Source: Saccostrea echinata (Eukaryota). From it: 64,000 nucleotides of DNA. Shown in pieces: positions 29,504 to 63,771 of this stretch. The DNA is taken from positions 42,780,001 to 42,844,000 of the forward strand of contig NW_026889750.1 of the NCBI RefSeq assembly GCF_033153115.1, given 5' to 3'. Every line of letters starts with the position of its first letter. Position 1 is the first letter of the stretch. The notes beneath the pieces were generated by a model that ran no database searches, was not told the origin of the DNA, and worked only from the letters and a program-made list of their open reading frames with translations. Both the position numbers and the translations under genes were made by a program.

Positions 29504-30158
29504 AATAATAATTATCTTCACGGATCCAAGATTTTCAGTATAGGAGGCATAAAAAAAGGAATATGTGTTTAGCTGTTTTGATATGTACAGACAAAGTAAA
29601 GTATGAGCAAAATGCATGAACCTTTAACTTTTTACTCAGAGATTTTATTTCTGCTTTTCGGCAAAAAGAGGGATTTTGGGAAATACACTTAATTCTACGC
29701 CGGAATTAACCTTTAGACGATAGGTGCAATATATGAATACATTGAATCTTTCCACCAACAGCCAAACGTAAGTGAAACGAGGACACAAGTGTAGCAATTT
29801 GATTGGTTAATAAACAAAGAAGCATAGAAGTGTTTTCGTCATTATGTGGACCAATGAAAATTGCAAAGATGTTCAATTTGCCAATACTTTTCACTTCGTT
29901 AAAATTATATACATGTGTTAGGTTCTTATTTGATTTATTACTGTTAATTAGAATATTTGATTGTTAGAAGAGACGTTAAGTTTCCTGTATGTAATAGGCA
30001 TACATGTACGTTAATGGCTTCTGGGTTATTTTGGTATCATTACCATCGCAGAACCATATATTATTTCTTTGCCGACAGACTTACGAATTAGCAAAATAAC
30101 AATTTAACATGCAAAGAGAAAATTTTTTCCTGCAGATTTTTTACAAGCCGAACCCGAC

Positions 30159-33100
30159 ATGAAGACAGTCAGTGAGTACTTGGAGAACGTGCTGGAAGAG
30201 ACGGGTGGCTTTGGGAAGTTCCAGATCCTTCTTCATGGCAGCATTCTCTTCAGTAAGGTGTCCATTACTTGGAGTCTCCTCATCATGGCGTTCGCTGGGG
30301 CTTCTCCTGACTGGTGGTGTGTCTACTCCAACACAACTGATGTCCCTTCTACCATTAACTACAGTATCATAGCGAACACCACTATGACGTCACCAGTCCA
30401 TGACGTGATTCAAGCATATAAAACATGTACACCATCGTCAAACGCCTCTGTCTGTCAGGCATTCATCTTTGATGATAGCATGAAAACAATCATTAACGAG
30501 GTTATACTATGTCTAAATATGTGTTATTTTTCATATTTTTATGTAATTAGAGACATGAAGCCCATAAGCCTTAGCCATCACCCGAGTCACACTCCTCTTT
30601 CTGATATGTGAATATGCAATTGCTCCTTTACAGTGTTTTTGTTTTCTTGATTTTGAAAACAAAACAAAAATAAACAAAGAAAATAAATTACATGTATGTC
30701 GTCCTCGTCCGTGTCCATTTGTTTGGTATTATATATCTACTTTTGTCGCCTGAAACAAAAACATCTCTGTTGCTAAAATGCAAGTTTCATATTCTCAAGA
30801 ATATTGACAGGGGATACTTACTCCTCCATGGCACCTGATCCCACCTCTGTTTTCAGAGTTCAGTGTTGACTCTGCTTACAACCTGTATTGTTTAAATAGA
30901 CTTGATCACTGTTCGTTATTTTTACAATTCATTCACTGTAATTTAATATATGGAAGCATTATTCTTTAAGAAGCAGTTCCCAAAAAGTACTTTTATTATA
31001 AGGCCCGTAATGATTGGAAGAATGGCTGTCTTGGCTGTTTACAAAACTGCTGCAGCAGTTGAATGATAAATCAGGTCTCATTATTATCGGTAAATAATGC
31101 TTTTGCTTTCCTTCAAATCGTAAAAGCTTTTTTGTCCCCAGCGTTTACTGAAAGTGGTGGATATTTAGTTGGGTTTGCCCGTCCGCCTTTCTGTCTGCCA
31201 TTCTGTGTATGTGGAACAATTTCGTTTCCGGACGATATCTTAAAACGCCTTTGAAATTTTGCAGTGTAATTTTATATCACAACTCCCTATATGGCCTCAG
31301 AACAACTCCTATTAGTTTTTAGGTCAAAAAGTCAAGGTCATAAATTCTCTGTGTAACACTTTCATTTCCGGACGATATCTTAAAAAGCTTTTGAGCTTTC
31401 ACAACGAAATTTTATATCACACTTCTTAATGCCCGATGAAGTCCCCTAATGATCTCAAGTTAAAAGTCAAAAATCAAGGTTGGAAATTCAAATATTGCAA
31501 ATAACATTTTCCAGACAATAATTTTAGTTTTATTTGAAAGTCTTTCAATGAAAATTTGTCACAACTCTCTATGGGCTACATAAGACCCCGATTGATTTTG
31601 TGGTCAAAAGGTAAATGTCATTCATTTTGTCTGTATGTAACATTTATGTTTCTGGACGATATTTTAAAAATCCTTTGAGCGTTTACTATGAAATTTAAAA
31701 TTACAACTCCTTATAGCCTTAAAAAGATCCCTATTGATTTTGAGTCAATAGGGCAAAGGTCATGTCAGAAATTCATACATTGCAAATAACATTTTCCAGA
31801 TGAAAACTTTAGTTTTCTTTGATTTTTTTCAATAAAATTTGATATAACTCCCTATGGATTAGAAAAGACCACTACTGATTATGACGTCGGAAAGTCAAGG
31901 TCAGATATTCATTCAATGCAATGGTTTCCAGATGATAGCTTTGGTTTTTCCTGAGCCTTTTCAATGATATCTTATATCATAATTATAAAACTTTATATCA
32001 TAACTCCCAATGACTTAGATTTTTTATTTTTAGGTCTAAAGGTCAAGGTGATAAATTTATATCTTGCAATAATTGGTTTCCTGGTGATAATTCAACTTTT
32101 TTTTAGGTTTTGCATTAGGTTTACCTTTATTCAATATGACTTAAAAAAAGACACTTATTGATTTTGAGTTCAAAAGGTCAAAGACCAGGTGAGAAATTTA
32201 TATATAGCATACTAATTTAAAGGTGACAGGTTAGTTCCCAAAACTCCAAAGAACTTTTAGAAAACTTTTCGAAAGTCATTAACATCAAACGTACGTCTTT
32301 TCTAGACTTTAAGCAACCTTTCCTTGTCATAAATTAAAAAGTAGGCTTTTAGTATCATAGGAAACTGGTTCTTCAATAAAAATGGAACTCGGAAATTTTC
32401 ATATCCTGTGATTGGTCATCAACAAAATTACATTGTTAAATATCACTCCGATTCTACATACAATACTCCGAAGTTTAAATTAAATCTGGAGTTCCTCATT
32501 GACAACATTTATATAGGCGTTGGAGACCAGGTCTTCCAATGGACCTAATTATACTCCTTTTTCAGCCGACCTATTTTTATATCCCTATGAATCAGAAAAC
32601 TTCTACATGAGAAGAAGAAAACACTTGCTCAACAACACGACATTCAGTTATCTTGATCAAGTTTTATCAATTAACAAAAATTACTTCCATTCATATGTCG
32701 ACTCGATATACTTGCATATCCCAGTGAACTAGAAATAAAAGACACCACAAAGTCTGCCACATCTGTTGCATATTTGAATGTTTTACTGACTAAAGACGAT
32801 AAGGGCCAAATAACAACTAAATTGTATGACAAACGAGATGACATCAGTTTTTCCTTTGTCAACTTTCCCTATCTGTATTTATGTTGTAATATTCCGTTAT
32901 CACCTGCACATGGGGTTTAACTCCCCCTACTTATACGATACTCAAGAACATGCTCTGAGTACGATTAATTTTTAAACCGAGGCAGGCTACTGACCGATAA
33001 GTTGATGTTTCAGGGATTTCAAAAACCTCGTTTAAAGTCAGCATTTCGTAAATTCTACGGTCGTAATAATGAATTGTTAGTAAATATGACCTAAATGTAT

Positions 33101-36100
33101 TATTGGGTCGTATTTTGACTGACGATTTTTATACCAATTGTTAGGCCTTTGTTTTTATATTTTTAATTTGACTTGCGAATATTCCGTTTAACTGATCAGT
33201 ACTTCACGGCGGAAGTGACCGGTCGACAGAAGATTTCTACTCCTTCTAGGCACTTGATCCCACCTTTAGAATTTCCGGGGGTCCGTGTTTTTATGCCCTG
33301 TTCAAAGATTTGAATTGTTTGTAGATTTATTTTAGATCGATCACTGTTTCTTATCTTCGACTTTTTCATTCTTTGTAAGCTTTTACAATGATACTTGAAG
33401 TCATGAATTTCTTTAAATTAAAAAGACCCGTATTGCCTTTAAGGCCAAAAGCTGAAAGGTCAAGGTTGATCTTTTTTTTACTCCATCTGCATTTTTTGGT
33501 TCTTCCACCCTCTTCTTTTTCCCTGATTCTCTGAATCTTGTCTTTTGCTTCAAGTCAAGTCACCAAATTTTAATAAATCTAACGATACTTGTCAATTTTT
33601 ACAGAGACCAGGGTTTCAACAAAGCAGATGAAGATGAGGATATTTGTTGGCTGATCTATATTTAATTGACAAACTGTCCATGATAAGTCACCAAAAACAA
33701 AATGCCTCAGACGACTAGTATTTTTGCAATTCCATTAATGTTTTGTTCTTTGCCGACATATGAAATTTTTGTTTTTTTTTTCAATAACACCATGCTTAAA
33801 TATTTTTCAGTGGGGATTGATCTGTGACAAAAAATGGGTGACAGCAACAGTTTCTTCGGTACAAATGGCGGGTCTTCTCATTTCCGGTTTTCTGGGTGGA
33901 CAGCTGGCGGATCTGCTGGGCCGGAAACCAACATTCTTCGTGTCTCTTTTCATTCTATCCGCCTCTAATATTGTGGCTGGATTTTCCCAGTCCTGGGTGA
34001 TGTTCGCTGTGACCCGTTTTATTATCGGGCTGGGGTGCGGGGCGTACCTCACCGTATTCTATACATTCTCTGTCGAGTTCACACCAACTAAATTTCGTCC
34101 TATTCAATTAGCCGTCCCTGATTGGTCAATCTGGGCTGCCTTGTTGGGACTTTGCTCCTATTTGTTGAAGGACTGGAGAAGTCTTCATATTCTGACTGGA
34201 GTTTTGACAGGAATTAGTCTCTTTTCTTGGTGGTATGTCTTTTATATAGAGAGCACATGGTTAAAAGCTTACATGTATTTCAAAATGAAAAAAAAAATAT
34301 TGAAAACTTGTGATGAAAGCATCACTTATTTTTAATAGGATTGTTCCTGAGAGTTTCCGATGGTTAGTATCACATGACAAATTGACTGAAGCTGACAGAG
34401 TCATCAAGAAAATTGCTCGCATAAACAATCATCCCAAACCCGAGCTTAATAAACTCCAAAACGTTGTAGAATCAGATGCTACGTTTCAAGGAGACAGGAA
34501 ATATACATTTTTAGAGCTATTTCGCAATCGAACACTGCTGATCAACACTGCATTAGCTGGTGTTGCCTGGTAATATTTTTCTCTACCCTTTTAAGGGAAA
34601 TTTTCACTGGTAATATTTTTTCTGCTTTTTTTCTTTTGGGGTAAAAATAGTGGATGCAATGTTGCTTAGCAACGTTATGGGCGTAATCAATGTTGCTTTG
34701 CAACCTGATGGCTTTTATTATCATTTGCTACCCTTTCATGATTTTTTTTTAATATAAAAGATAAGAATAACACTAAATTTATATTTAGGAACCTTACAGT
34801 ATTGTCGAATATTGATCAATTGTAAACAGATGACAGTCACGTATTTAATATATAATCTTTCAGGTTCTCCAGCGGTTATGCCTACTACGCTATTTCCTAT
34901 AGCGTGGACCAACTCTCAGGAAATCTTTACCTCAACATGTTTCTCCTTAGTGTCATCGACATTCCCGCTCTTATGAGCATTTGGTACCTCAGTAACCGGT
35001 ACGTATTCAGTAACCGATAAATACCCCAGTAACCGGTAAGTGTTCAGTGTTAAATAAGTATACCCCAGTAACCGGTTAGTATTCAGTAACCGTTAAGTTC
35101 CTCATTAAGCGTCAAGTATTCAATAATCAATAAGTACTTCATTGACCGGTAAGTATTCAGTAAATGACCGGTAAGTACTCAGTAACCAGTATCAGTAATT
35201 GGTAAGTATTCAGTAACTAGTACCTCAGTAACTGTTAAGTATTTAGTAACCAGTACCTTTGTAACCGATAAGTTAACTGTAACCCATAAGTACCTCAGTA
35301 ACCGGTAAGTATTCAGTAACCGATAAGTTTCTCAGTAACTGGTAATTAGAGTCGCTGGTAAGTACCTCAATAACTGGTAAGTATTCAGTAACTAATAAAT
35401 ACTTCTTTTACTGGTAAGTACCTCAATATATAATGAATTTACAAAAATACTCTCGTAATCGGCGATTACCTTAGTAACCAACAATAAATGACTGGTAAGT
35501 ATTCTGGCATTAGGCATTTAGCACTTCAATAACTAGCAAGTACTTGACCTTTCGTTACCGAAAAGTACCACAGAACCAATGAGCAGCTAGTTAGTCACCA
35601 TTAATCATCCCTTTTCCTGGCATATAAGGATTTTCTTTTGTTTGTACCCTTTTTTAGTTTGCTTTTAATATGTAGCATAAGTGATTCAATTCTACCCTTT
35701 TGATTCTGCAAAGGACAAGGTATGGTACGGCCGAATTTAGCCCCATACTGGAACTAAAAATCAAAACATAGTTAAAATTGATAGTTTGCAGTTAAAGGTG
35801 CTTAGACACAGATTTGAAGTTAATATTTAATCAAATTTTCTGTATAATTTCATGACTTATATGTTGTTTTAGCATTTCATACGAAAATTTGATAAAAATA
35901 TTATTTTATCCGGAAATTAATGAAATTTCGAATTTCTGGACGCGTTTGATCAACACATCCTTGCACTTTCACAAATTTTAACTTTATCCTTATTACTTTA
36001 GAAAAGTAGCAATTTTGTTGTTTATTAATGAAAAATATTAAAACTATAATGCAGAAATTTCAGAGTAAAAATGTAGAAAGCAAAATCCTCTCACCAGTAT

Positions 36101-39100
36101 TGTCAGTCCGTGCTCAGTGGTGTGTGCAGAGTTTAACAATTGAACACACCCGGTGAAACGTAAACATTAACAACAACAGAGCTCGTGCCCTACAAAAAAG
36201 TTTACGTTTCACGGGTGTTTCAATTTGTTAAACTCTGTACACAACTACACAACACTGAGCACGGGCTGACAATACTTAAGTGAGTGGGTTTTGCTTTCGC
36301 ACATTTTTACTCTGAATTTGCTGGATTATACATTTATATACAACAATATTGCTACTTTTCTTAAGTATTAAGGATAAAGTTAATAATTATGAAAGTGCAA
36401 GGATGTGTTAATCAAACGCCTCCCGAAACACTGTAGTTTCAATAATTTCCAGATTAAATAAGTTTTTAATTTATTTTTGGTGTGAAATGCTACAGCAACA
36501 TATAAGTTGTGATATTATACAGAAAATTTGAGAAAATATAAACTTCAAATCTGTGTCTATGCACCTTTAAGAACTTTAAATGATGCTTGTTTCAATATTA
36601 GCACTAATTTTGATTCAAAACGTACACCAAGGTCACAAAAGGGTGTCAAATACATTTTCCTCAATTATAATAGAATTTTATTTTGAGATACTATTTATTT
36701 CGGAAAACAAAGAACACAAGCTTGCCTATGAAAGATTTTTACACTCAAGATGAATCTTATACTAGTGCATAGAATACATGTACATAAATTTGATAGATAG
36801 GCAAACTTGTGGTCTATATTTTCTAAAACAAAGTGTGCTTTAAAATTGATGCAAACAAAAATAAGAAATTCAGAACTTTGCATGTTTTATGATCTTCGCT
36901 TGACCTTTGTGTATCCCAAACTTTTGGAATCAATGCTAACAGGTTTTTAATGATGAGCTATTGATCGTTCTTAAAGATAATCCAAATCAGGGACCAAAAA
37001 GGAGTCTTAGCTTATCCGATCCTTTGAAAATGTTCTCTTTTTTAAAGATTCAATGATAAATGGATTTCATCCATCAAAATAGCGTAGTCACATACAATAT
37101 CTAAAGCACCATAGATAACCTTAATTCTAAGAACGTCTGTATTTTGTTACTTTTTAACAGTATCGGTCGCAGATGGACCTGTCTGGGATACTTTGTGATT
37201 GGCTCCCTGGCCTGTCTGGGCGTGGCAGTATCACAGATGATAGGTAAGTCACTGTCATTATAGAAAAATAAAAGTATTTCTCCCAGCAATTTTTAGCTCT
37301 CCAGAGCCAAAGGCTCAAGTAAGCTTCTCTGATCAAGAAAGTCCGCCGTGTGTCGTTTGTTGTCTTTTAGGGTTTTCTTCTTCAGTATCCCTGCTTCATA
37401 TTTATCCATGTCCTTGATTAAAGGTTGTTCAAGTTTGTTTATATGGAGGTCAAGGCACTTTTTTGAAAGGAAAATAAGGAACAAATACGGGAATTAGTGT
37501 GGGATCGTTTTAAAATATTCTCAAGAACAGCAGGATTATAGATATGCAAGATCTTTATTTAGCAGGCCCGAAGAACGCAGGGGGGGGGGGGGGCTACTTA
37601 TTTCTGAGTATAGTATAGTACAGTATGAACCGTAATTTAATCAAAAACTTACACGAGAAGAAGACAACACTTGTTGTGGCCTTCATCTCGACATTTAGAT
37701 AAACCGACAACATATTATCAATTAACAATAGTTACTTCCATTCATATGTTGACTCGATATATCCCAGTGAGCTTGAAATAAAAGATACCACAGAGTCTGA
37801 CATTTCTGTTTCTTATTAGGATATTTTACTAGAAAAAGACTTTAATCACCGTGTTAAACCCCACATATGGGGACGCGGAATAGTGACCTTTGGGGGTGCG
37901 GATTTCGAAGCGTAATTTGCTAGGAAGACTGAATTAGCTTTTCTACAGCGATTGAGATGGATTTAGTTCTATGTTAACATACCACGGAACTCAGTGATTT
38001 CTCCGCTTACTGATACCAGTATCCCACTTCACAATTCGTGCTAGAAGTACATGAACTATGGAACGCCGCAGCTGCCTTATGTGGAGAACATTCATTATAT
38101 GCTGATACTTTAACATTATATGCTGATAGTTTGTCATTATATGCTGATACTTCAACGTTATATGCTAATACTTCAACATTATATGCTGATACCTTAACAT
38201 TATATGCTGATACTTTAACATTATATTCTGATACTTTAACATTATATGCTGATACTTCAACATTATATGCTGATACTTTGTCATAATATGCTGATAGTTT
38301 GTCATTATATGCTGATACTTTAACATTATATGCTGATACTTTAACATTATATGCTGATAGTTTGTCATTATATGCTGATACTTTAACATTATATGCTGAT
38401 ACTTCAACATTATATGCTGATACTTCAACATTATATGCCGATAATTTGTCATTATATGCTGATACTTTAACATTATATTCTGATACTTCAACATTATATG
38501 CTGATACTTCACTATATGGTGCTTTAAAAAATAGGTTAAACATCGGGATCTTCATACTAAAATTCTTTGACAAGAGAAAAAATCCAAAAAAAATTGTTTT
38601 CAATTGCAAAGTTTTAGTATATATATACACGTACATGTATTGGTTTATATACATGTACATGTATTGGCAAATTGATGGGACGAAAAGGGATAGGATGCAC
38701 GTGTAAGCAGTCTTGAATATACTGGCGTATTTGGGAAGGGGTAGAGAGTACATATATAATATTAAGAGTGAACTAAACGAAGATAGCCTTGCAAAAAACG
38801 CGTGTACTGCACGAAAATTTAAGATATTTTGGAAGTTCAGAAACTCTTCATGGTATTAAAACTTCGCTTTTTTTAAACATCAATGATATTACAGGACATC
38901 AAAGCAGAATAATATAATTTATAGGGGACAAACATTTGATTCGTTTGGGGAGGGGGTGCAATTTTTTTTTCGAGTCAGATTATTTATTTTCATGTCACTT
39001 CGTGAATGATAGATTATTCATTTTCTAGATGACCAGGTACAGATTATTTATTTTCACACAAAACAAAAAAGTCTAACCAAACTCGAAAACTCCATTTCTT

Positions 39101-42100
39101 TGGGGAGAGGGGTGGGGCTACCTCCACGCCAAAGTCATCCTAGTACAGATGATTAATTCACATCATATGATACCCCCCCCCCCCCCTCCCACGCGTATTG
39201 CATGGTCGTTCCGGCCTCAGAACCACTCGTCAGCACTTAAGTTTTCGATAGGTCTTTTATATGTAATTTTCAAATCGGTAGGACGGGGGTTGTTGTTCAG
39301 GGATTTCATTGTTATGACATCGACATAGTAATTTAGGCTACTAATGACTCAAAAGCTTTTCCAGAATCTAGCTGCCATTGCATTTTAACTGGACTATTTA
39401 AGCTGGTCTATACATCCAATGCCATGCATGCGATCATTCTGGAAAACTGTAAAATCACCGAAACTGAGATTATGAAGTTAGTTTGAACTCTGTGAATATT
39501 GACGGAGTTGTAATCTTCCCAACACCCCACCCCTCCCCCTTCCAAAAAAAAAAAAATTAAAAATTATAAACTCAAAAATAATATTTTTAACATCCAAACA
39601 ACTAATATGATATTTCACTAAAAATTCTTCAATTTCAATTAAATTATACCTCATGCAGTATAAATTCATCTATAAGAAATCATATTAAAATACATGTATT
39701 TACTAGTATTTATATATTTTTTGCAATAATACATATAATCATGTAACTTGTAAGCCAGTAAACACATTCCAGAGGGGTATACAGGATTTCAAGATGGGGG
39801 GGGGGGGGTGTTTGTTTGATTATTGTTTAACGTCCTTCTCGAGAATTTTTCACTCAGATTGAGACGCCACCACTTGCCGGTGGAGAGCTGCAAATTTTTT
39901 ACCTATACTCGGCACTCAGGGCCATTGAGCAGCGAGGGATCTTTTTCGTGCCAACACCTACTGCGACACGGGGCCTCGGTTTATACGGTCTCATCCGAAG
40001 GACCGGTCTCCACGTCCCACAGTGGGATTCGAACCCGCGACGTAAGGACCAACTCCTTACTTCGCGATTCTAGAGCAGACGCTCTAACCACTGCGCCACG
40101 TGGGCGACGGGGGGGGGGGGGGGGGGGGGTGATATTAATGACAAAATGACAACATAAACTCAAAATACTACTAGTAAAAATGAGTATATAGGAGCAAAGA
40201 TTTTCTCAAGATTCAGGTTTTCTCTATTGAATATCAAGAACATAAATGTTTTCTAAAACTTTTCTTTCTTTCAACCTCTTACTTTTTTTTCTTCATTTTT
40301 TTTTTAAAGACGTACATATACCACATATATATAAGTGTGGTACGTCTTTTTTAAACGTGGGTTTTCTTGACTGAAAGTGTTAGAATCTAAGTGTATTTAA
40401 AGTAGATTCAAAATTTTTTATTAACAACCCGAAAGATAAGCCATCATGATTACACATACATATTTTGAGATACAACGTTAGTTTTCCTTGAAATGATGAA
40501 TGTGAACAACAATCAAAATGTCAATATCCACTTGAACCTTTAAAATCCGACCAAAGAGACCTTATTAGCTGAGAAAAGGCGTGCATACGTCGAACAACCT
40601 GCAATAATCATTTTAATAAAAACTTAATATTCTCACACATTCTGTTAAAACATGCGTTTTGGACGATTTTCGTATCACGATCCCGATGTTTTACCTATTT
40701 TTAAAACACCATATAGTGAAGTATCATCATATAATGTTAAAGTATCAGCATATAATGTTGAAGTATCAGCATATAATGTTAAAGTATCAGCATATAATGT
40801 TGAAGTATCAGCATATAATGACAAACTATCCGCATATAATGTTGAAGTATTAGCATATAATGTCTCAGCATATAATGACAAAGTATCAACATATAATGAC
40901 AAACTATCAGCATATAATGTTAAAGTATCAGCATATAATGTTAAAGTATCAGCATATAATGTTGAAGTAACAGCATATAATGACAAACTATCAGCATATA
41001 ATGACAAACTATCAGCATATAATGTTAAAGTATCAGCATATAATGAATGTTCTCCACATAAGGCAGCTGAGGCGTTCCATAATGAACACTTCAACATTTT
41101 CTGGCTATGACACGCGGAGTTGCAGATTTGATCGGTTCTTGGTGAAAATTCTTGCTTAATTTATCATTCTTCATCATTTGAGTTGTATGAGGGGTTTCTT
41201 TGCATAATTTTGCAGAAAATACTGTAATAGACTTTCACCCCAAATAAACGGCAAAACCTTCAATATTATTGTGTGCAACCCGGCGGTTGACTTTTAGTGG
41301 AGGTAGGGGGCAAGGAATCATTTTTCATTCTATCTTGTTTGTAGGAATCTGCTGTGTTTAGAATGCATATGTAAAAGAAATAAATTCAAATGAGACTACT
41401 AACTCGCACAAGATGAAACAGGCCTTTATTTTTATACTGATTTTGACTACGGAAAGTTCCGTCCACCAGATCAATACATAGGGCTCACGGCGGGTGTGAC
41501 CGGTCAACGGGGGATGCTTACTCCTCCTAGGCACCTGATCCCACCTCTGGAATTTTATCAAAAGGTAATTAAACTATCTTGGCATAAGTAGCATGAGCAT
41601 GCATTTCCCTCTGTCACGTACAACATAAAACATAACACAAAACGTAAAACTTATTTTGAGTAAATATGGCGAATTCGAACCAAAAATATATGTACTAGTA
41701 TTTTTAAGACTCTACACAACAAAATTATGCATTTCATGGGCTCTCTTTACAGAAAAAGTATTTTATATCTTGCGTATCTACCTCGCTGTATTTTTTTTTT
41801 ACTTTAATAAAAGCTTCTCCACAAGTCGCCCGCGCGGTTGGAGCGTTCGCTATAGAGTAGCTGAGTAAGGAGTTCATTCTTTCGTAGGGGGTTCGAATTC
41901 CAGTGCGGGATGTGACCCATCCTTCGCGTATAAACCGAGGTCCCATGTTGCAGTAGGTGCTGGTACGAAAAAGATCCCTCACTGTTCAAAGGCCCAAGTG
42001 CCAAGTACAGATCTAAATTTCTCGAAGGGACGTTAAACAAATAAAGTTAACAAATCTTCTCCACAAAAGTTTATAACAAGTGACATATTTGAAACGCTTC

Positions 42101-45100
42101 GGTTTTCTCACTTTGAAGCTTATATATTGTTTGTACGTTTCGACGTCCATAAAATGTCCACAGCATTTTGAGCACATACATTTTTTACATTAAAATGGGT
42201 TTTTGAAAGTCTTTTTCCACACTTCCCGAACAATCATGCAAAGAATCCAAGTGCTTTGACATGATTTGACTGCAGTGGCCACCATTTCGAGGAGAACTGT
42301 TCTAGCATTGTGGGCAGATATTCTTTTTTTTGTATTTTTTTGACACGCTATATAAGAAAAATATTTAGCCGAACTGGTATGGCATGTCAAACGTTGCAGT
42401 ATTCGATCTTTTCCATTTGTATTGTATAACTTTCCATTTGTATTGTAAAATTTTTATTTGTATTGTATAATTTTTCATTTGTATTTTATAATTTTCCATT
42501 TGTATTGTATAACTTTCCATTTGTATTGTATAATTTTTCATTTGTATTGTATAATTTTTATTTATATTCTGTAATTTTCCATTTGGATTCTATAGTTTTC
42601 CATTTGGATTGTATATTTTCCACTTGCATTGTAAAAAAAATCATTTGTATTGTATAATTTTTCATTTGTATTCTATATTTTCCAATTGCATTGTATAATT
42701 TCTTATTTGTATTGTATAATTTCTTATTTGTATGCGATAATTTTTCATTTGTATTGTATCCGAGGATTGTTTATTTATTTCGTTACGAAGGATGTCATTG
42801 GTCATAAGTCTGTATAAAGGTTTCGGGTGCCCAACACAAACTTAGTCTGGTACCCTTCCTACAACTCCGACCGCACACTCACTACAAACACAAACTCGGC
42901 TTCTCTATTTGCATGCATGCTAAGGGACGAACATTCGATTCTCGGGGGGGGGGGGGGGGCGAATCCGATTATTTTTTTTCATTCTCTCACAGGAGAGAAT
43001 ATTTATTTCCAATGTGACCAGAGACAAGGAGAAAAACGAAAAGAAGAAAATCTGCCCAAACCCGAAAACTCAGTTTCTTTGGGGTGGGGGTAGGTTCCAC
43101 CACTCAAGGTCAATCTATTTATTTTCTCAGTCATTATTTCTAAGGACAGATTATTTATTTGCCACCATACATATGCCGCCGAAACATGGCTGAAATATTG
43201 CCGACTCAGTGTTAAACAATAATCAAGCAAGCAAGCAAGCAAGCAAATACATATGAGCCCAGTTTGCTTTGAGCACCCGGAACATCTTCAACCCGATACA
43301 GGCTGAAACTTGACCAATGAAATCCTTCGTAACGAAACAAATAAACAATCCGCGGATACAATACAAATGAAAAATTATCGCATGCAAATAAGAAATTTTA
43401 CAATACAAATAAGAAATTATACAATGCAAATGGAAAATTATAGAATACAAATAAAAATTATACAATACAAATGAAAATTATACAATACAACTAAAAAATT
43501 ATAGAATACAAATAAAAATTATACAATACAAATAGAAAATTATAGAATACAAATAAAAATTATACAATACAAATGGAAAATTATACAATACAAATGGAAA
43601 AGATCGAATATTGCAACGTTTGACATGCCATAAACTGGAGCTTAAAAATCATTGTACCCTTTTCCCCACATCAACTTAAATCTGAATTCTACACTTAAGT
43701 TAAGAATTATGTATGTTCCATATACAAAAAAGGAGAAAAAATACGCACAAAAGGTTGTCCCAAAATTTCGTAGACAAGCTTAGTTTTGTATGAATCCGGT
43801 CTCATATATTAAAGAAACTTTGAATATACAGATTAAACCTACTATAACTAATAACTTTATAGACAAACACAGAGTAATTACACAAGTTAAAATATTTTAT
43901 TTTCTCATGTAAGAAGGGGGTGCGGTACCCAGCAAATGCATCTGAATATCGGTTTATATATTTAAAAGAAAATTTTTTAATTTCTGTAAAAGGTATGATA
44001 GTCTACGGAATTGTGGGACAACCTTCGTATATGTATAGAATTTTTTTTATTTTTTTTATTTTTTTTGCCTATTAAAATCGAAATAAAATATATATAGTGT
44101 TCTGTTCTGATCAAATATAAACATAATATTACTACATGTAACATCTGTATAGTCTTGTTTATTTGAGTATAAAAGCAGAGTTATGTCGATAATTTTTTGC
44201 TATGATTAACCGACTAATTCGTCGGAACGTCTTGCGCTAAACCGATTGGCAATTCTATAATCGATTGCCATCCCTAGTATATATTTAGTTTATATCTACA
44301 GGTGCAATGCAGCAAATATGTAATGTTATGTCAAATTCTATATCCAGAAGTATCTGGGCAAAGAGAGGGTAGTGGAGTCAAATAACAGTTGCTATCATTA
44401 AGCGTAGAAAGCCTTACTAGTATACATGTATATGAATATGAGTCAAAGCAAAGAAAATGAACAGAAAAAGTTGCTGAAAAGATTGAATCANNNNNNNNNN
44501 NNNNNNNNNNNNNNNNNNNNNNNNNNNNNNNNNNNNNNNNNNNNNNNNNNNNNNNNNNNNNNNNNNNNNNNNNNNNNNNNNNNNNNNNNNNNNNNNNNNN
44601 NNNNNNNNNNNNNNNNNNNNNNNNTATTTGATTGGATAAAAAATTTACTTTATATCGTATAAAATGGGTTGCCTACGTCACAATGACTTGCGTCGAAAAC
44701 GTATCGATCCGCCTGACGTTACATTTAAATTTTGTACAAATTGAAGTCATTTTTTAAAGACCATCATCTTTTTTTCTTACACTAAATGAATGAAAATTAA
44801 ATTATAAGGAATGAAATTAATAGCTACCCAATTTATACGGTATAAAGTGGGTTGGAACAGTTTACGCTTTTTTATAAACCGCTTCGCGGTTTATAAAGCG
44901 TAAACTGCCCATACCCACTTTATACCGTATAAAATGGGTAGCTATTAAATTCATTCCTTAAATATATATAAAGCACTAAAAATGACCAACGACACGAACA
45001 ATAATAATTGTCAAATTTTCGGGACAACCTGTCCCTTCCTCAGGACAAAGAAAAAAGTTAAGAAGTCATAAAAACAAAGGAAATAGAGAAGCAAAAACAA

Positions 45101-48048
45101 CTAGCACTACTACTAAACTACCAAACACTAAATATTTACAATGTTACATGTTTAATTTGGAGTTTATAAACAGTTGTGAACAAAGAAAACCGGTGTATCC
45201 GGTTAGCAGGGGTTGCTCACTCCTCCATGACACTTGATCCCACCTCTGAGGTTTTTGGAGGTCCGTGTTTGCTCTGCTCCCGATTTGTATTGTTGTATCC
45301 TGAAGAACACCTCGGCCAGAGTTATTAAGTATCTCCATACAGTGTAGATTCAGTTTGTTCACATCAGAAGCTAGAATGAAGTCATGATTGGAATTAAAAT
45401 TTTATTTGGGAATTCAAGTGTATTGGAATAAAAATTCTTAAGTTTAAAACTCGTCTTTTTAAGATCAGCAAGACCACAATAGGTCATATTGTAATTATAA
45501 TACTTTGTCAAATCATGGGCCTTGGGCTATATAGGGAATCAGAATTTTGCATTGGAAACATAAAGGGAAAAAATCTATAAATAGTCTTTTCTGAAGAAAA
45601 ATGGGGCATAGTAGTAAAATTAATCATCTTCATGTAATAAAGATGAGACTGTTCAAATCGTGACCTTGGGGTCAAAAAAAGAGTAATACTATCTAAAGGT
45701 TATCTTCGCCCCTTGCTATTGCCCTATCACACTTGCAAACGATTTTGCCCCAGAACCACACCCCCGCCTTCCCAAAAAAAAACATGCCCTTCACAAAAAG
45801 GAGTAATATTATATAAGGGTTATTTTCGCCCCGTGTTATTATCGCCCTATCACACTTGCAAATGATTTTGCCCCATACACCGTCATGTTAAAGAGGCAAC
45901 TCTGTCTTCTTTGAATTTGCCCCGTTTTAAATTCGTCCACTTTGGAGAAAGGGGCGAAAATAAAATGGGGGTGAATTTTTACCTGTTTACAATATGCATG
46001 TATATATGTATAGAAACATCTTGGTCTTCTCACAAAGTCAGAGTCGCATTTAGTCATATTTAATATATGCAAACATCCAATGCAACGTGGATTCATATAA
46101 GGGCAACCATTGGGAACATCTGTAAGAAAAAGAGGGCTACTATTTCCTTGAGGTGATATATAGCCTTTATAGTTAACTTTATTTGGAATCGTAGACTTTA
46201 ATTTTGAGAAGAGTAAGAGGTTTCATTTTTTCTTGAAATCACAGACTTTAATTTGGAGACGACAGTAAGAGGTTTCATTTATCTACGTGTACTTATTCAA
46301 TAGACCTTTGTCAGGAAGAGAATGGGGAATCAGGTAAGCCTTATGAACCACGGGCCTCTTGTTTAACTCAAGGTGGTTCTGTTAAAAGTATAAACAATTA
46401 ACTTTCCTTGATTTGTTTCAAAAATAAGGATACCGCAAAGTGGAATATCCCCTCGCAATAGAGCACATCTTCAAGAGGCTTGTTACGTACAACACTCTAA
46501 GCACTCGCATCAAAACAAAAGCAAATGGATGTTTGTAAAAGGCAGTATCATACCACAGGTACTTGTGGACAGGACCCCCCCCCCCCAATATTCAACCCAG
46601 AGGCTTGTTGGACATTTTTTTTCACAAATTATATTTATTACACTTATTTATCATGTGTACCATAGGTAAAAATCGTGAAAACCCCAAAATAATCGTTCCA
46701 CACAAAACTACCCTCACTATACATTATAAGAGATCCTTATAATGTATAATGGGGGTATTTTTGTGTAGAACGATTATTTTTAGGTTTTCACGAAAACAAG
46801 CCTCTGGGTTGAATATCGGGGGGGGGGGGGGGGGGGGTTCCTGTCCACAAGTACCTGTGTGTCATACAAAGTTCCTGTCATTTTTTTATGTTTAACTGCC
46901 ATTGTTTATGTTTAACTGCCATTGACTCCTGATTCATTCTACAATAGAACAGAGCTAAGTTATAATTATGGAGCACCAACATATAGATCTGTACAATTAA
47001 TTATCATTACAGCAATCACAAAACGCGTCTTATTGACAAGAATACATTTTAATTTAAAAAAAATAGAAAAGAAAAAACCATATACATTAGGGGGCATTTT
47101 TATTTTATAGATAGATCAAATATGATTTCAGTATCGTATTTTTAACGCTGCATTTTACGATCAAATCTCAAAATGTAGGTAAAATTGTATCAAAAACTTG
47201 GTCTTTATTCTCAGTTTAATGTGTAGCTCAAGTTTGCTCAATGCCACAACTACAACAGCTAGGAGTCACATGATTCAAAGACTGTGTTTTTTTCTAGATG
47301 TGGACAAAGAACTGCAGAAAAGTCTGATAAACGGATTCGCTCTGGCGGCCAAACTTGGCGTCTCTGCATCCTGGGCCGCCATCATGGCCTTCACAACGGA
47401 AGTTTATCCCACTGTCGTCAGGTAAGTAGATTCAGGTCCGGAAGTATAATTACTAGTATCCCACTTGTCGTCAAATAAAAAGATTCAGATGCGGAAGTTT
47501 ATCCCCTTGTCCGCGGATCAAACAGAAAAAATACTCTATTTTAGCAAAATGGATATAGTGTTCTCATCTTATATAACTCCTGTAGGGGTATATCTTTACA
47601 TTTTTAATTCAGTTTATTCAGTACTTTAACATTTACTGTAGGCCCTTCAGTAGTTCCCGAGTTTTCGTTCGACAAATTCACTTGTGATTTTTTTTCTATA
47701 TAAAATCTTATGATTTTTACTTTAAAAAACAGAAACATTGGTTATGGAACTCAGAATTCCATTTCACGGATAGGAGCGCTTATTGCACCCCAGTTTGTTC
47801 TGCTGGTAAGTATTCGTGGAAATTATCCGATGTAGATAGAATTTTGTGGTGCACTATGAATTTACCTACAATTCTTTATTTTTTTTTATTTCCAGAACAA
47901 AGAAACTCCTGGGGTTATGTATATCATCTGTTTTGTTGTTTCCTTAATCTCAGCTATCATGTGCCTTTTGCTGAAGGAAACCAAAGATAAAACAATTGGG
48001 GACAATTTGGAAGTTTCAGTAAAGCAGAGGTCCGGAAGTCGTGTGTAG
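30159..48048 (+). CDS. SLC22-family organic cation/anion transporter, paralog 2; 8 coding exons, 520 aa
   Basis: Exons 30159-30500, 33811-34232, 34339-34569, 34864-34998, 37161-37243, 47298-47421, 47733-47805, 47896-48048. Exon lengths are identical to paralog 1 (342/422/231/135/83/124/73/153). The frame is intact to the TAG stop. Confidence 0.93.
31128..32220 (+). repeat. Helentron/HINE-like element with ~140-bp tandem array (about 7 units)
   Basis: TTTCCRGAYGATA...AAGGTCAAGGTCA units at about 31225, 31365, 31508, 31649, 31793, 31925 and 32077. T-run start with a short hairpin and GTCC/GTCT microsatellite. A remnant resumes at 33370-33470. Confidence 0.65.
32230..33369 (+). mobile_element. 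Highly decayed Naiad copy (RT 3' half plus 3' UTR) in intron 1 of paralog 2
   Basis: Recognisable similarity to 50810-51976 (aaactccaaagaacttttagaaaa; ttgtatgacaaacgagatgac; gtgaccggtcgac...ttttcat). Confidence 0.8.
34985..35570 (+). repeat. Homologous donor-junction minisatellite (paralog 2)
   Basis: Same unit, longer array. Confidence 0.85.
35796..36566. mobile_element. Kolobok-like foldback MITE (TTAA TSD)
   Basis: TTAA|AGGTGCWTAGACACAGATTTGAAGTT at both ends; inverted arms of about 370 bp. Confidence 0.8.
37291..37560 (+). mobile_element. HINE/Helentron 5' end with satellite remnant
   Basis: ttttagctctccagagccaaaggctcaagtaagct..., the typical TTTTAGCTCACCTGAGC start. A matching 3' end (caggtaagc...gggcctcttgttt) lies at about 46331-46363. 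Confidence 0.6.
37640..37845 (+). mobile_element. Internal Naiad RT fragment
   Basis: Matches 51215-51425 (YIDD region to EIKDTTESDISVSY). Confidence 0.8.
38057..41081. mobile_element. Non-autonomous IS3EU-like DNA transposon A with array-built TIRs of about 500 and 420 bp
   Basis: Ends TATGGAACGCC...GGCGTTCCATA. TSD ATGAAC at 38051-38056 and 41082-41087. Inverted arms 38057-38563 and 40665-41081 contain 21-bp arrays. Confidence 0.85.
39811..40108 (-). mobile_element. tRNA-derived SINE, full length (central domain probably Meta/MESC type), nested in element A
   Basis: A box TGGCGCAGTGG and B box GGTTCGAATCCC; body TGGCACGAAAAAGATCCCTC; (AAAC)n tail; flanked on both sides by G-runs. Confidence 0.85.
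41825..42055 (+). mobile_element. tRNA-derived SINE of the same family, internally deleted
   Basis: Same head (GTCGCCCGCG..., B box GGTTCGAATTCC) and body. 11-bp TSD CTTCTCCACAA at 41814-41824 and 42056-42066. Confidence 0.85.
42378..43632. mobile_element. Non-autonomous IS3EU-like DNA transposon B with array-built TIRs
   Basis: Ends TATGGCATGTCAAACGTTGCA...TGCAACGTTTGACATGCCATA. TSD AACTGG at 42372-42377 and 43633-43638. Arms 42378-42804 and 43311-43632 carry 21-bp TTGTATAATTTTYCATTTGTA arrays. Confidence 0.85.
43172..43246 (+). mobile_element. SINE/LINE 3' tail fragment with (CAAG)n tail, inside element B
   Basis: catggctgaaatattgccgactcagtgttaaacaataatcaagcaagcaagc resembles mollusc SINE tails; recognised from memory only. 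Confidence 0.55.
43742..44029. mobile_element. Mariner-like MITE
   Basis: Inverted AAGGTTGTCCCAMAATTYCGTAGAC; the right end is CCTTCG|TA. Confidence 0.55.
44491..44624. other. Assembly gap
   Basis: N run. Confidence 1.
44626..44960 (+). mobile_element. Second copy of the terminal-hairpin element
   Basis: Aligns to 29174-29503; hairpin 44805-44960. Confidence 0.6.
45008..45048 (-). ncRNA. Minimal type I hammerhead ribozyme motif (Penelope-like element pLTR type)
   Basis: Minus strand reads TTGTC-CTGAGGA-A-GGGAC-AGGTT-GTCCC-GAA-AATT-T-GACAA: stem I, CUGANGA core, stem II, GAAA, and a palindromic 4-nt stem III. Confidence 0.72.
46554..46859. mobile_element. Foldback MITE with 8-bp TSD (P- or hAT-like)
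   Basis: TIR CACAGGTACTTGTGGACAGGA-(C)n-ATATTCAACCCAGAGGCTTGTT; TSD TATCATAC/TGTCATAC; palindromic interior. Confidence 0.8.
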
Positions 48049-49601
48049 AAGTGAAAATATTACACCAGTAGAAGTACGATGAGCTTCCCAAGACGACCAT
48101 GGTCCTATAGCTACATGATATACTATGCAATTTGTCGAAACCAATTATCCTACGTTTTATAATAGATTATATTTCTACTTTTTTGTAAGCGAATTAGTTT
48201 AGCATAACATAATTAGCATAATAGAATAAATTGAATTCAGACAAGATTTTTGTTACTATTTTTCATTGTAAAAAAACTCATTAATAATTCTTGAATAGAA
48301 AGGAACGGCTTTCTTGTGCCCTTCACCATATATTTAACTACATTTTTCATTTTCTCACTTTGTTCATGAAAAAAAAAAATCAAAAAAGAAAATCAAATTC
48401 GCATCTCAAATTTGCTGGTCTCTAAGAGGCGAAAGAGAGCTTGCGTTGCCAGTTGGCATCTAATTGGTTGAAAATTGCAACCGTTAATGTTAGAATTACC
48501 CGTCATGTAGAAAATTATTTCCCCAGAAACATTTCAGCTTATCAAAAAGGCTTCTCAAATGAAATGAGAAGGCGTTTATGCAAATTATCACGCAAGCCAC
48601 TCGATTGATCACATCATGAATCCAAAAAATTAGACAGTTATTCCAATAATAGGGGAAATCTGAGAAAGAAAGAGGGAAATTTGGCTCTACTGTGAGATTT
48701 CCCCTCGGGGGAAAATCCCACTTTAGAGTACAGATTCCAGGGGGAAAACTGGCTATTGGGGAAATCCTACTCTACAACACCTGTAGGCCATTTCCAACCA
48801 AAATTGGCACAAAGCATCCTTGGGTAAAAGATAATTCTAAAGTCTTCAAATGAAGGGCAAAGTTCTCTTCCGAAGGAGAAATAATCAAGAAAAGGCAAAA
48901 TTAGGGTGAAGTCATTAAAAAATCTTCTCAAGAAACACTGGGCCAGAAAAGCTGAAACATATATGGAAGCTTCCTGAGGTAGTATAGATCCTAAATTGTT
49001 CAAATCATGGTCGGGGGGGGGGGGGTTTAAGATGGGGTCAAAATAGGGGATCTAAGTTTTTCATTGAAATATATAGGAAGAATCTTCAATATCCTTCTTC
49101 TCAAGAACCACTGAACCAGAAAAATCTTATATCCATGCAAGCTTCCTGAGGTAGTGTAGATTCTAAATTGTTCAAAACATGGACCCCGGGAAGGTTGAGG
49201 TTGCAATAGGGGATCAAAGTTTTACATTGAAATATACGGGAAAAATATTTATAAATATTCTTCTCAAGAACCACTGATTCAGAAGAAATAAAGCTTATAT
49301 GAAAGCTTCCTGTTGAAATATATAGGAAAAATCATTGAAAATCTTTTCAAGAATCACTGGATTAGAAAAGATGAAAGTTATTCCAGATTCTAAGTTTTTC
49401 AAATCATGGCCCCTGGAGGCAGGGTGGTTTCCACAATAGGGGAGAGAAGTTTAATGGTGAATTATAGATATTAGATTTAGAAAAAATCTATAAAAATCTT
49501 CTCAAGAATCACTGGTTCTGAAAAGTTGAAGATTGTAAATTGTTCAAATCTTGGTCCCCGGAGGTAGGATGGGGTCACAATAGAGGATCTAAGTTTTACA
49601 T

Positions 49602-51976
49602 GGGTTAGGTCAACAGTTAGGTCTACATCATATTCGCACCAAACTTTACTCTTTCCCTTTGAAACTTTTAAATAGTCTTCTTGAAAAGGTCAAGGAAAGT
49701 CCATTTTTTGATTCCTCGACACCAGAATATAGGCTCGGATCTGTAGTTATGGATATTGCCAATCATAGGCTTTTTAAACCCCCGCGTTTTACTGAAGAAA
49801 ATGCAGCTAAAACAATCCGTTTTTTCCTTAAACTTCAATATGCCAACAAAGGAATTGACGCGGTTAATATAAGTAATATTCTTAATCACAAAAGGGTCCA
49901 GTCTTGTATTCCACCATATTTCAACTTAAAGATTACACCTTGTATTTCCTACAAATATACATCGACTATTGCTTCCAAACTTTTTAATTACAAGAAAACT
50001 TTACAGGGCCTGGATATCGAATATCTGAAACATAATCCTCCATCGTGTTCATGTTCTTCTTCGCCCTATAACTATAGTCCTGCTGGACACGTTATTACTG
50101 GTGACGTAAATATAGTTAATAATGAGGACCTTAGATCACTAATTTTAAAAGGTCCTAAATTTAGGGAACCTAGATCCTTCAACTGGCGTAAGAATTTCAT
50201 AAATATTATGGATTCTGTAGAGGACTACGCCAGGCGATGGGCCAGACATGAAAAAGAAGACCTTGACACTTTGTCAGAATGGATTAAATGTATCAGATGT
50301 ATGTTAAAATCGCGCATTAAAAGATTGAGAGGCAATATGAAAACCATCTATCCTTCTGTATTCAATAATCCAGAAGTGAAAAAAGAATTAGATAGATTAC
50401 ATGATCAGTACGTACTGGTCCCTGCTGACAAAGCAGGTAACAACATTGTTTGTAAGGCTCATTATATTAGATGTATTTTAGAGGAACTTGGATTTAATTC
50501 TACAAGTGGTAATCCAACTTATACTCATAGTTCCCTTTCTAAGGAAGAAATTCATCAAAATCATATGTCAGTTTTGGATGTTTTTAATATTCCAAACAAC
50601 CAAAATGAATTCCAATTACCATATTTATATTGGATTCCGAAACTTCATAAAAATCCTTACAAACAAAGATACATAGCGGGTTCCAGTAAATGTTCAACCA
50701 AGCCTCTATCTTTACTGCTCACTAAGATATTAACAGTGGTGAAGGAGAAACTTCAAGAGTACTGTGCAACAATATATTCGAGAAGTGGTGTAAATCAGAT
50801 GTGGATACTTAAAAATTCCAAGGAACTTTTGGAAAATTTGAAATCACAAGATTTTACCAAAATCAACAGCTTAAAAACTTACGACTTTTCAACTTTATAC
50901 ACAACCATTCCCCAAGATAAATTAAAGTCCAGGCTTTTTGATATCATTGACAGCTGCTTTTTCAATAAAAATGGAACTCGTAAATATACTTACCTTGTTA
51001 TTGGTCATTTGCAAAATTATTTTGTTAAAAAACATTCTGATTGTACACACAAGTACTCTGAAGTTGACATTAAAAAGATGCTTGAGTTTCTGATTGACAA
51101 TATCTATGTGGTTTTTGGAGACCAGGTCTTCCTACAATCTATTGGAATTTCTATGGGTACCAATTGCGCCCCGTTATTAGCAGACCTTTTTTGTATTCAT
51201 ATGAAGCAGAATTTGTCCAAAATCTTGTACATGAAAAGAAGAAAACACTTGCTGTGGCGTTCAACTCGACATTTAGATATATCGACGACGTATTGTCAAT
51301 TAACAATGGCTATTTTCATTCTTATGTCGATACGATATATCCTGGTGAACTTGAGATAAAAGATACCACAGAGTCTGACATATCTGTTTCATATTTGGAT
51401 ATTTTACTTGAAAAAGACGTTAATGGTAATCTAACAACCAAGCTTTATGATAAACGTGATGACTTTAACTTTTCAATCGTCAACTTCCCTTACTTATGCA
51501 GCAATATACCTTCATCACCTGCATACGGGGTATATATCTCTCAGTTGATTCGATACGCAAGAGCATGCCCTACGTATGTACAATTTCTAAAACGAGGTAA
51601 ATTATTGACAAATAAGTTGATGAAACAAGAATATCAGCTGTCTCGTTTAAAGTCATCATTTCGTAAGTTCTATGGTCGATACAATGACCTTGTCAGCAAA
51701 TACAATTTATCATTGAGTCAAATGCTGACTGACGTTTTTCATACTAATTGTTAGGCCATTATTTACACACTGAATTGTCGACGGATTTTTCCGTTACTTC
51801 CCGATCATGACAAGGAGCACACGGCGGGTGTGACCGGTCGGCAGGGGATGCTCACTCCTCCATGGCACCTGATCCCACCTCTGATGTTTGGAGGTCCGTG
51901 TTTGCTCTGCTCCTATTTTGTATTGTATAATGGACTTTTGAGCTTGAATACTGTATGTTATCTCCATATATTTCAT
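49602..51976 (+). mobile_element. Naiad-type Penelope-like retroelement, 5'-truncated, reverse transcriptase (RT) almost intact
   Basis: ORFs 49659-51359 and 51164-51754 join across one frameshift in a T-run at about 51190. CxC linker (PSCSC...GHVITGD); PLE RT motifs PADK, IPKLHK, DFSTLYTTIP, GISMGT, RYIDD, YLDI; no C-terminal GIY-YIG; 3' UTR ends TTTCAT. CATGGG is present at both junctions (49599-49604, 51974-51979). Confidence 0.88.
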
Positions 51977-61500: not shown

Positions 61501-63771
61501 ATCTCTTCCAGGTTCACCTGGGATTCCAACAAAACCAGTGTCTCCCTTGGCACCTTAAAAACAGAACAATTTCCTCATCATAACCTAAAACTTTCTCAAC
61601 CCGAAATACTGAATAATTCTTGTTTCATAGATCATTCAAATACTACAGCGACTTCATAGATATCTCACCTGGGGCTCCGTCACGACCACGTTCTCCTGGC
61701 AGACCTGGGGGTCCCTGGGGTCCATCTAATCCTGGTGCTCCAGGACGTCCTGGGACACCAGCCTCTCCTCTCTCCCCTGGGATACCAGATAATCCCTCTG
61801 TTCCAGGGAGTCCTGCATTTCCTTTGGCACCAACTGGACCTGATAAGAGAAGAAAACATCAGGTTGAAATTTCATTGAACAGTCTTCATGAAATGAACGA
61901 TGGAATATATATCACTGTTATTATAAGCAATGCTTTTGAAATTAAGGCTACATTGACGAAAGCTGTCAAAATCAGACAAGGATCCTTGATATGTTTAAAT
62001 CAATAATCCTAACTTATAGAATCTAAATTTTGGGCAATTAAGCCCCAAAATTTCCAGTTTCCTCCTTTAACATCTCTAGTAAATTGAATGTGCAGTCATC
62101 AAATTATAAGGAAAATAAACTACTTTAACTTTTAGATCTGATTTGACTTTTCATCCAGTACCTGGTATTCCTGGTAGACCTGCATCTCCAGGTGGACCTC
62201 TTGCACCTTCTGGTCCAGTAGGTCCAGGTTCTCCCTTCTGTCCTGGACCACCTGGTAAACCAGGAAGTCCAGATGGACCTGGATCACCCTTCATACCGGG
62301 AAGACCATCTTGTCCAGGAAGTCCGTCTTGTCCTGGGAACCCAGGCTGGCCACGAGGTCCGTCAAGTCCAGGCAATCCCGGTTCTCCTTTCTCACCATTT
62401 GTAGAACGTCCATCTCTTCCAGGAATTCCGGCTTCCCCTACAATTATTATATGGTACTCCTTTTAAATGGAACCCTTCCATTTGATTAATTAATTTTTTT
62501 TTTGTAATACTTGATTTCAAGGGGGAAAATTCAGAAATATTGGGGGAAATAATGAAATTTCAAGATTACAGAAGTAAGTACATGTATTTGATGATGTCTG
62601 AAAAATGTGACTTGCTTTGTCAACTTTTATACCTTATGTCTGCCTATCTTGCTTTGTCAACTTTTGTACCTTATGTCTGCCTACCTTGCTTTGTCAACTT
62701 TTGTACCTTATGTCTGCCTACCTTTCTTTGTCAACTTTTGTACCTTATGCCTGCCTACCTTTTAATCCAGGTAATCCCTGGGGGCCAGGTTCTCCAGGTC
62801 TACCATCAAATCCTGGCTGTCCTGGGGGACCATCTGCCCCCTTGTCACCTCTGGGTCCAGGAAGTCCTGCATGTAAAAGAAAGAACTCTGTCATCTACTC
62901 AATACATTAAAACTGTCAAGTCAGAACCATGGAACTGATTTCCCAATTTACTCTTAATAATCAATTTAATAATTAATCTTAAGAATTTGTCAAGATATAG
63001 GAGCTGATTATAAAAGTTCTGATGGAATTAATTCTCAGGAAATTAAGGCAAATTACCTCCTTGTTATTCCCAAATTAAAGTTTTGAATGAAATTGCTAAA
63101 TTTTAAACAATAATGATCATTGATTAATAACCTCTTAGCTAAGTTTTTTTAGGTACAAAAATCTAAGCAATATATGGAATCAATTATGAAATATAAGATT
63201 CAAGCACATGCCCATCAACCTCAATTTTTGATATGATCTTTTTAAATAAGTAGAGTTTAAACCTACATAATCCTGCATCAAATAAACTAGATGTAGAGTA
63301 AAACTCTGATATCTAGACACCCTGGCTATCTTGATGTTTTCCAATTTTATTGGACATACTATTCAATACTACATTTAAAAAACTATAACAGTGTTCCCGA
63401 TGTTGTGACAATGAAGTGTACCTCTGGGGCCAGCGTCTCCCGGTATTCCATCAAGTCCTCTTTCTCCCTTCATTCCAGGTAAGCCATCCAGACCAGGGGC
63501 ACCAGGGACTCCTGTTAACAGTCAAAACAAGCCTCATAAACATCCAGGCCAAACAATATCCAGCTTGTGTCAAATTTTGAAAAAAAAAGTCGACCCCAAA
63601 TCATCTCAATGGATATTAAGCAAAAGGTTTGGAAAATTACTTTAAATTCATTCACAACATTCCATAAAATATAATATGTTGAAATTTACCCCTTTCTCCC
63701 TTGACTCCCGGAAAGCCATCTCTTCCAGGAATTCCTGGATTTCCAGGAAATCCAGGTTCTCCCTTTGTTCC
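55552..63771 (-). CDS. COL4A2: Collagen type IV, alpha2-like chain; 3' part only (Gly-X-Y exons plus NC1 domain), 5' part outside window
   Basis: About 17 short Gly-X-Y exons between roughly 57020 and 63770, then NC1 exons 56641-56832, 56066-56352 and 55552-55812. The NC1 motifs [34 protein letters not shown] and [10 protein letters not shown] match the alpha2-like class. The symbol denotes the class, not proven orthology. Confidence 0.93.
62612..62762 (-). repeat. 37-bp tandem repeat x4 at a collagen intron 5' end
   Basis: Minus-strand unit GTAGGCAGACATAAGGTACAAAAGTTGACAAAGCAAG. Confidence 0.85.

Follow-up and report, generated by a model that had tools for sequence, protein, structure and literature searches.

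Phased tandem arrays at the ends of IS3EU transposons in Saccostrea echinata as putative docking sites for their transposases

A 64-kb stretch of the 923-Mb genome of Saccostrea echinata (contig NW_026889750.1, positions 42,780,001 to 42,844,000; hereafter the window) contains three transposons, which we label A (38057-41081), B (42378-43632) and C (2819-3519). A and B belong to the IS3EU/GingerRoot group as non-autonomous elements and have full-length partners elsewhere in the genome; C is likely to be a non-autonomous member as well. The elements have matching ends, 6-bp target-site duplications (TSDs) and dispersed copies, A and B have complete two-gene partners, and most related families in this genome carry end arrays with a period of 20-23 bp or a multiple of it. 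We put the combined reading, in which these arrays are putative multi-site docking strips for each element's own transposase, at a probability of roughly two in three.

All three elements have TAYGG..CCRTA termini, and each is flanked by a perfect 6-bp TSD: ATGAAC for A (38051-38056 and 41082-41087), AACTGG for B (42372-42377 and 43633-43638) and GAAAGT for C (2813-2818 and 3520-3525; all given for the plus strand). A preliminary description of the window had reported these coordinates, termini and duplications, and they withstood a control for chance: when TA[CT]..[AG]TA pairs were required to have identical flanks of 6 bp and an inverted identity of 17/20 or more, the window gave 3 matches, and each of 20 versions shuffled in 3-base blocks gave 0. 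The description also held that the tips share essentially only TAYGG and that the three elements are unrelated. Neither statement stands, as the tips are identical at 11/20 (A-B), 10/20 (A-C) and 8/20 (B-C) positions, A and C have TAYGGAA in common, the interiors of A and B share one 57-bp match of 81% identity, and the transposases of their partners (see below) are 39% identical over 332 amino acids (aa). As described earlier, the window appears to encode no transposase; none was seen among frames of at least 90 aa, which were read by eye rather than scanned exhaustively.

The ends of A consist of a unique tip (36 bp at 38057-38092, plus strand; 41046-41081, minus strand), an array of 21-bp units (19.9 copies at 38093-38509, plus strand; 15.9 copies, inverted, at 40719-41045, minus strand) and an inner block (38510-38563, plus strand; 40666-40718, minus strand). 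The array is strictly phased, with 33 of 34 spacings exactly 21 bp. B has the same layout, with a 31-bp tip (42378-42408, plus strand; 43602-43632, minus strand), arrays in which 21- and 20-bp units are intermixed (16.9 copies at 42409-42759, plus strand; 11.6 copies, inverted, at 43356-43595, minus strand) and an inner block (42760-42804, plus strand; 43311-43355, minus strand). The inverted inner blocks said to close the arrays of A and B are real. Phased inverted arrays had been claimed for C too, and here the claim fails in part. This element is 701 bp long (typical copies are ~570-600 bp) and has 32-bp terminal inverted repeats (TIRs) with one mismatch, but its array of 14-bp units is clear on the left only (4.6 copies at 2843-2906, plus strand); the right end holds a degenerate, non-mirror version (lag-14 autocorrelation 0.59, compared to 0.76 on the left). 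Subterminal tandem repeats within the TIRs at both ends, which characterise type 2 foldback elements, are thus present in A and B and not in C. About 100 bp inside the window's C (3136-3235) are unmatched in other C copies, and a very high-copy repeat nested in A (39812-40118), which we take to be like a short interspersed element (SINE), is unmatched in a more distant A copy (L101).

Exact matches to the tips are dispersed across the genome (46 for A, 420 for B and 32 for C), with 0 for reversed control patterns. Outside the window, perfect 6-bp TSDs were found for 10 of the 16 A pairs, for 9 of the 14 B pairs (taken from the first 30 of the 420 tip matches) and for 14 of the 18 C loci, of which two look like one duplicated insertion; the expectation that other copies would have such TSDs is borne out for most of them. 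In their interiors, two copies of A differ from the window's A by 2% (98% identity); copies of B and C are mostly 78-90% identical. Five short B copies (191-868 bp) are composed of tips and arrays only, and four of these have a perfect TSD. In one C copy (L204:82-1529) the left array has grown to ~0.9 kb of a 28-bp unit.

Matches to the Pfam profile rva_4 number at least 150 in the genome, and around them we found complete partners, three of A type (17.8-18.1 kb) and three of B type (15.4-19.2 kb). All six have tips nearly identical to those of the window elements and carry the matching array unit at each end, and every one has a TSD and flanks of its own, although one B-partner TSD lies inside an AT microsatellite and is uninformative. 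Two of the A-partner copies are 99.6% identical. The transposase frames are uninterrupted (465 aa, and 497-530 aa from stop to stop), match rva_4 with E values of 2.6e-74 and 1.8e-85, and have catalytic spacings of D-57-D-33-E and D-57-D-35-E. The long copies with a DDE transposase and a second open reading frame that the preliminary description anticipated thus exist for A and B, and the second frame is HECT-like. The predicted structure of the A transposase (mean confidence, pLDDT, 86.8) comprises a SAM-like domain, a pair of helical domains that match helix-turn-helix (HTH) motifs weakly, and an integrase-like core that resembles retroviral integrases, IstA, TnsB and MuA. The structural match lies mainly in the catalytic core (residues 205-415), not in the DNA-binding part.

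The window elements and their partners agree in the details of their ends. The first A unit stands at the same offset from the tip in the window copy and in autonomous ends, with 86 of 88 spacings exactly 21 bp, and autonomous B carries the inner block of B at each of its ends. In window A, the two inner blocks both match the partner end that bears the start of the second, HECT-like gene. A therefore consists of two copies of one end, rather than being a simple internal deletion. Three other candidates for A partners were discarded. An 8.3-kb copy (L094) contains a nested element with a reverse transcriptase and a tyrosine recombinase, presumably a tyrosine-recombinase retroelement, and a 22-kb copy (L091-L093) contains an insert that we take to be Polinton-like; both retain perfect TSDs. 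An rva_4 match next to an A tip on C50 is part of an adjacent element that falls in a different family.

By eye, the core of the A transposase is identical to IS3EU-3_CGi_1p at 87 of 105 positions, and that of B to IS3EU-4_DR1p at 67 of 107, in the portion of the supplement of PMC10045372 that was available. Given this identity to Repbase IS3EU proteins, together with TA..TA ends (TAYGG..CCRTA with TIRs, found in A, B and C alike) and 6-bp TSDs, A and B almost certainly belong to IS3EU. The assignment, made from these features, is to the superfamily rather than to a subgroup. The IS3EU label of the preliminary description is hence upheld for A and B by complete partners with a matching transposase core; C, judged by its ends and TSD, is likely to be a non-autonomous IS3EU element too.

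For a survey of the array period we used 112 fetched loci, which represent 97 distinct places among the at least 150 rva_4 matches and fall into 33 transposase families in two deep clades. Five families with no more than 1.54 kb of upstream sequence were excluded. Among the 28 testable families, 25 had an upstream array with a period of 20-23 bp or a multiple of it (41-44 or 62-65 bp), and a recognisable tip was present just outside the array in 21 families. Nine of 12 loci traced towards the far end are complete elements with perfect 6-bp TSDs; eight of these nine have arrays at both ends, and eight of nine have a convergent gene. The far end was not found within 20-30 kb at 3 of the 12 loci in this later set, or at 7 of 15 in the first partner set (locus C72 is in both, and C23 was completed later). 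Within 1.62 Mb of fetched sequence, a period of 20-23 bp or a multiple was seen in 19 of 21 tip-linked array clusters, compared to 13 of the 37 remaining clusters, where the tip pattern had failed to pick up several IS3EU arrays. Five families (F14, F15, F16, F17 and F22) have complete elements with 6-bp TSDs and TACGA termini instead of TAYGG.

Array units differ between lineages, and related lineages have related units, but the period stays at 20-23 bp even though the unit sequence is replaced completely from one deep clade to the other. Six of eight tested units from the second clade are palindromic at p<0.05; the units of A, B, C and F19 do not reach this level. The earlier suggestion that 21 bp corresponds to two helical turns is supported by these families, with C (14/28 bp) as the exception to the period.

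The second gene of the partners is convergent to the transposase gene and lies at the opposite end. In A it has six exons, over most of which it is 97-100% identical to P0007, annotated as an uncharacterised host gene. The encoded protein has a SAM domain, a mixed alpha/beta domain, a conserved zinc-finger-like motif and a HECT domain, and the HECT Cys near the C-terminus is invariant in 10 of 10 aligned proteins. P0007 matches Pfam HECT (E 2e-10), and Foldseek matched the companion protein to HECT domains (E 5e-11), while a clade-2 companion protein falls below the Pfam HECT cut-off (20.4 vs 23.9 bits). The gene thus has the fold and the catalytic Cys of a HECT E3, with ligase activity as a prediction from sequence. 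A two-protein composition, stated as a rule for IS3EU in the available text of PMC8232023 (citing Kojima 2019), is found here as a transposase plus a HECT-like gene, with six exons in A and partial in B. Homologues of the companion protein occur in other bivalves, cnidarians and hemichordates, and three contigs of matching small size are in both the HECT and the transposase match lists, a weak hint of linkage elsewhere.

The SAM domains of the transposase and the companion are homologous (hhalign probability 97.2%, E 2.8e-11). A SAM-SAM complex was predicted with a score of 0.45, compared to 0.00 for the best control, and runs agreed in 100% of contacts (partner pLDDT 71). In our calibration, 5 of 78 solved complexes passed with a score of 0.60 or less, as did every one of the 4 mismatches (out of 180) that passed at all, and SAM pairs may pass by their likeness to solved structures. 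The prediction therefore lends weak support to a complex between the transposase and the HECT-like protein.

How might such elements move? Under the docking-strip reading, the partner transposase would mobilise A and B in trans, cutting at the unique 20-36 bp tip and inserting at sites staggered by 6 bp. The two helical domains predicted to bind DNA in this transposase would cover ~21 bp, so that many protomers could load in phase along the array and feed the tip. Both partner genes start ~70-100 bp inside the arrays, and bound arrays might also damp their expression. Most speculatively, the HECT protein could be recruited to the transposase through the SAM domains, which are homologous, and ubiquitinate it, leading to its turnover or disassembly. 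This ubiquitin-regulator step is the weakest link. A more ambitious version would make a superfamily-wide rule of a 20-bp tip followed by a long two-turn array, with the period set by the protein footprint and the sequence co-evolving in each family, plus an own HECT ligase that docks via SAM-SAM contacts to switch off or dismantle array-bound transposase; we regard it as doubtful in this full form.

Several observations weigh against docking strips, or against parts of the scheme. A perfect 6-bp TSD is absent from 6 of the 16 A pairs, from 5 of the 14 B pairs and from 4 of the 18 C loci. Families F12, F20 and F30 have no upstream array; in F4 and F9 arrays are present in a minority of copies and may belong to a nested element, and one F9 locus carries a 10-bp array. 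The number of units per end varies widely (11-35 in A, 7-22 in B), and the unit of C, 14/28 bp and one-sided, does not fit a 20-23 bp period. The Fisher p value of 7e-5 for tip-linked versus other clusters overstates the independence of the families, since they share descent. The B transposase has no SAM match. Three complete B partners show only the last two HECT exons and a fourth copy two more (the N-terminal exons of this B gene were not found), and an F16 element has no second-gene match, so an intact ligase in cis is evidently not needed.

Neutral minisatellites vary in unit number too, and one alternative is that an ancestral subterminal site was amplified by slippage, its 21-bp period then being kept by descent and by conversion between ends. 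The roughly threefold difference in copy number between copies, the relatedness of units in related lineages, the three families without an array and the C copy grown to ~0.9 kb are all consistent with this. Yet slippage and descent would not readily account for a period that holds at 20-23 bp through complete unit turnover between deep clades, nor for the constant offset of the first A unit and the exact 21-bp spacing behind it, and palindromes, common in the second-clade units, are a frequent feature of protein sites. We therefore consider neutral arrays improbable. That arrays seed minisatellites, as the preliminary description proposed, is a separate matter, for which the evidence is on a small scale: the expanded C copy and the array-only B copies. 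It is plausible that the arrays are a source of dispersed oyster minisatellites. A table in PMC8268682 gives IS3EU as the match for two satellites of oysters.

If the arrays are protein sites, the protein need not be the transposase. They could bind the second protein through its zinc finger, or a host factor, and act as promoter or anti-silencing platforms, in line with the position of both gene starts, the conserved zinc-finger-like motif and the presence of two copies of the HECT-side end in window A. Against this, copies without genes, including B copies reduced to tips and arrays, retain their arrays and are flanked by TSDs of their own; there is one zinc finger only, within an E3-like protein, and the transposase has HTH-like matches and two predicted helical domains ahead of its core. 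Sites for another protein are thus, in our judgement, improbable. Docking strips for the transposase, with a period that reflects the protein footprint, are favoured by the precedents of Tn7 and Muta1 (compared below). Lastly, it is very improbable that C belongs to another superfamily with 6-bp TSDs and resembles IS3EU by chance: its 14-bp period differs and an autonomous C was not found (97 of the at least 150 rva_4 matches were examined, and 19 stretches around long or unpaired C tips gave no transposase or HECT match), but its tip is identical at 19 of 22 positions to that of autonomous F17, the nearest autonomous tip, its array holds a 12-mer found in the F10 unit, and Ginger2 and Polinton, which PMC6839031 names as the other DNA transposons with 6-bp TSDs, have TG..CA and AG termini.

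The partners of A with uninterrupted transposase frames, the matching mini-elements and ~25 families with different units and the same period make it directly testable how the ends are recognised and what the second gene does. If the more ambitious version above is true, these would be eukaryotic transposons with a built-in ubiquitin-based regulator, and a single genome would hold many natural, orthogonal transposase-site pairs. Because the annotation treats the second gene as an ordinary gene of the host, some 'HECT/G2E3 expansions' of marine invertebrates may be transposon cargo. Twenty G2E3 copies in a sea cucumber were interpreted as adaptation in the part of PMC9700323 consulted.

Of two tandemly duplicated major facilitator superfamily (MFS) transporter genes, presumably SLC22-like (12362-19037 and 30137-48046; exons 81-89% identical), the second carries A and B between its exons, and C lies upstream of the first. 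The introns of the two paralogues fail to align, and the use of the paralogous gene as an empty site was dropped. No joints skipping A or B were listed in assemblies of four sequencing runs, whose contigs were repeat-derived; the eight runs listed each shared at most 0.08 of words, with no RNA run among them. Both transporter genes have paralogous intronic arrays of 18/19/37 bp (14842-15186 and 34985-35420), whose unit resembles tandem copies of the end of an exon together with the 5' splice site, so that each array offers numerous cryptic donors. Further along, long overlapping frames at 49593-51754 have no Pfam match at E 0.001 and presumably derive from a Penelope-like or a non-long-terminal-repeat retroelement, and a type IV collagen gene (Gly-X-Y exons; Pfam C4) is represented by its 3' part on the minus strand at 55552-63756.

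IS3EU elements are also found in one another. Three B copies (L177, L190 and L221) are nested in or adjoin other IS3EU elements, the first of them within the array of a non-autonomous F10-type element, and an F17 element is located 25 bp inside an F14 tip; a preference for inserting into related ends is possible. A different two-gene element, with a YqaJ-like nuclease and a second gene that we take to be a Harbinger-like transposase, occurs nested in an F2 element (L146:6943-10000) and near a C copy (L211:3993-7218).

Of known systems, IS3EU/GingerRoot is the closest (PMC10045372, PMC12730594, PMC6839031, PMC8232023; these and the comparisons that follow draw on the accessible parts of the cited papers). 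It has the same TA..TA termini (TAYGG..CCRTA), 6-bp TSD and two-gene layout, and the integrase-like DDE cores found here are 63-83% identical to named IS3EU proteins. The differences concern the ends and the companion. Described TIRs are >30 bp in fungi or 100-150 bp in GingerRoot, with arrays unmentioned in those parts, whereas the inverted ends here are 300-750 bp of phased units; several families here start with TACGA; and the companion gene is an alpha-kinase in fungal TET+ families and HECT-like here. HECT and ubiquitin do not occur in the GingerRoot paper. IS3EU is called poorly characterised in the text seen of PMC8232023, and the accessible literature compared reports no transposition assay for it. 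Nor did we find a description of IS3EU end arrays or of an IS3EU HECT gene in that literature, with Repbase, Dfam and subscription journals outside the search. The superfamily, its ends and its TSD were thus already known, and the present work adds a survey of the array period across the genome and connects the mini-elements with their partners.

The array architecture itself has two precedents. Muta1 of Aedes aegypti, a type 2 foldback and Mutator-like element (PMC5499845), also combines a terminal motif with tandem subterminal repeats that are kept in non-autonomous derivatives, and its repeats increase binding and excision. It belongs to another superfamily, has an 8-9 bp TSD and a 12-bp repeat with 3-4 bp linkers, and the function shown there is predicted here. 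In Tn7, a short tip is followed by an array of 22-bp TnsB sites, the innermost of which overlaps a promoter (PMC9308760). The elements described here similarly have a short end sequence followed by an array with units of about this length, a transposase with an integrase-like fold and an innermost site beside the element's promoter, and IstA of IS21 and MuA are further fold neighbours of the A transposase core. Tn7 differs in being bacterial, with 3-4 sites per end arranged asymmetrically and with ATPase partners, as opposed to 7-38 units per end and a HECT-like partner in the oyster elements.

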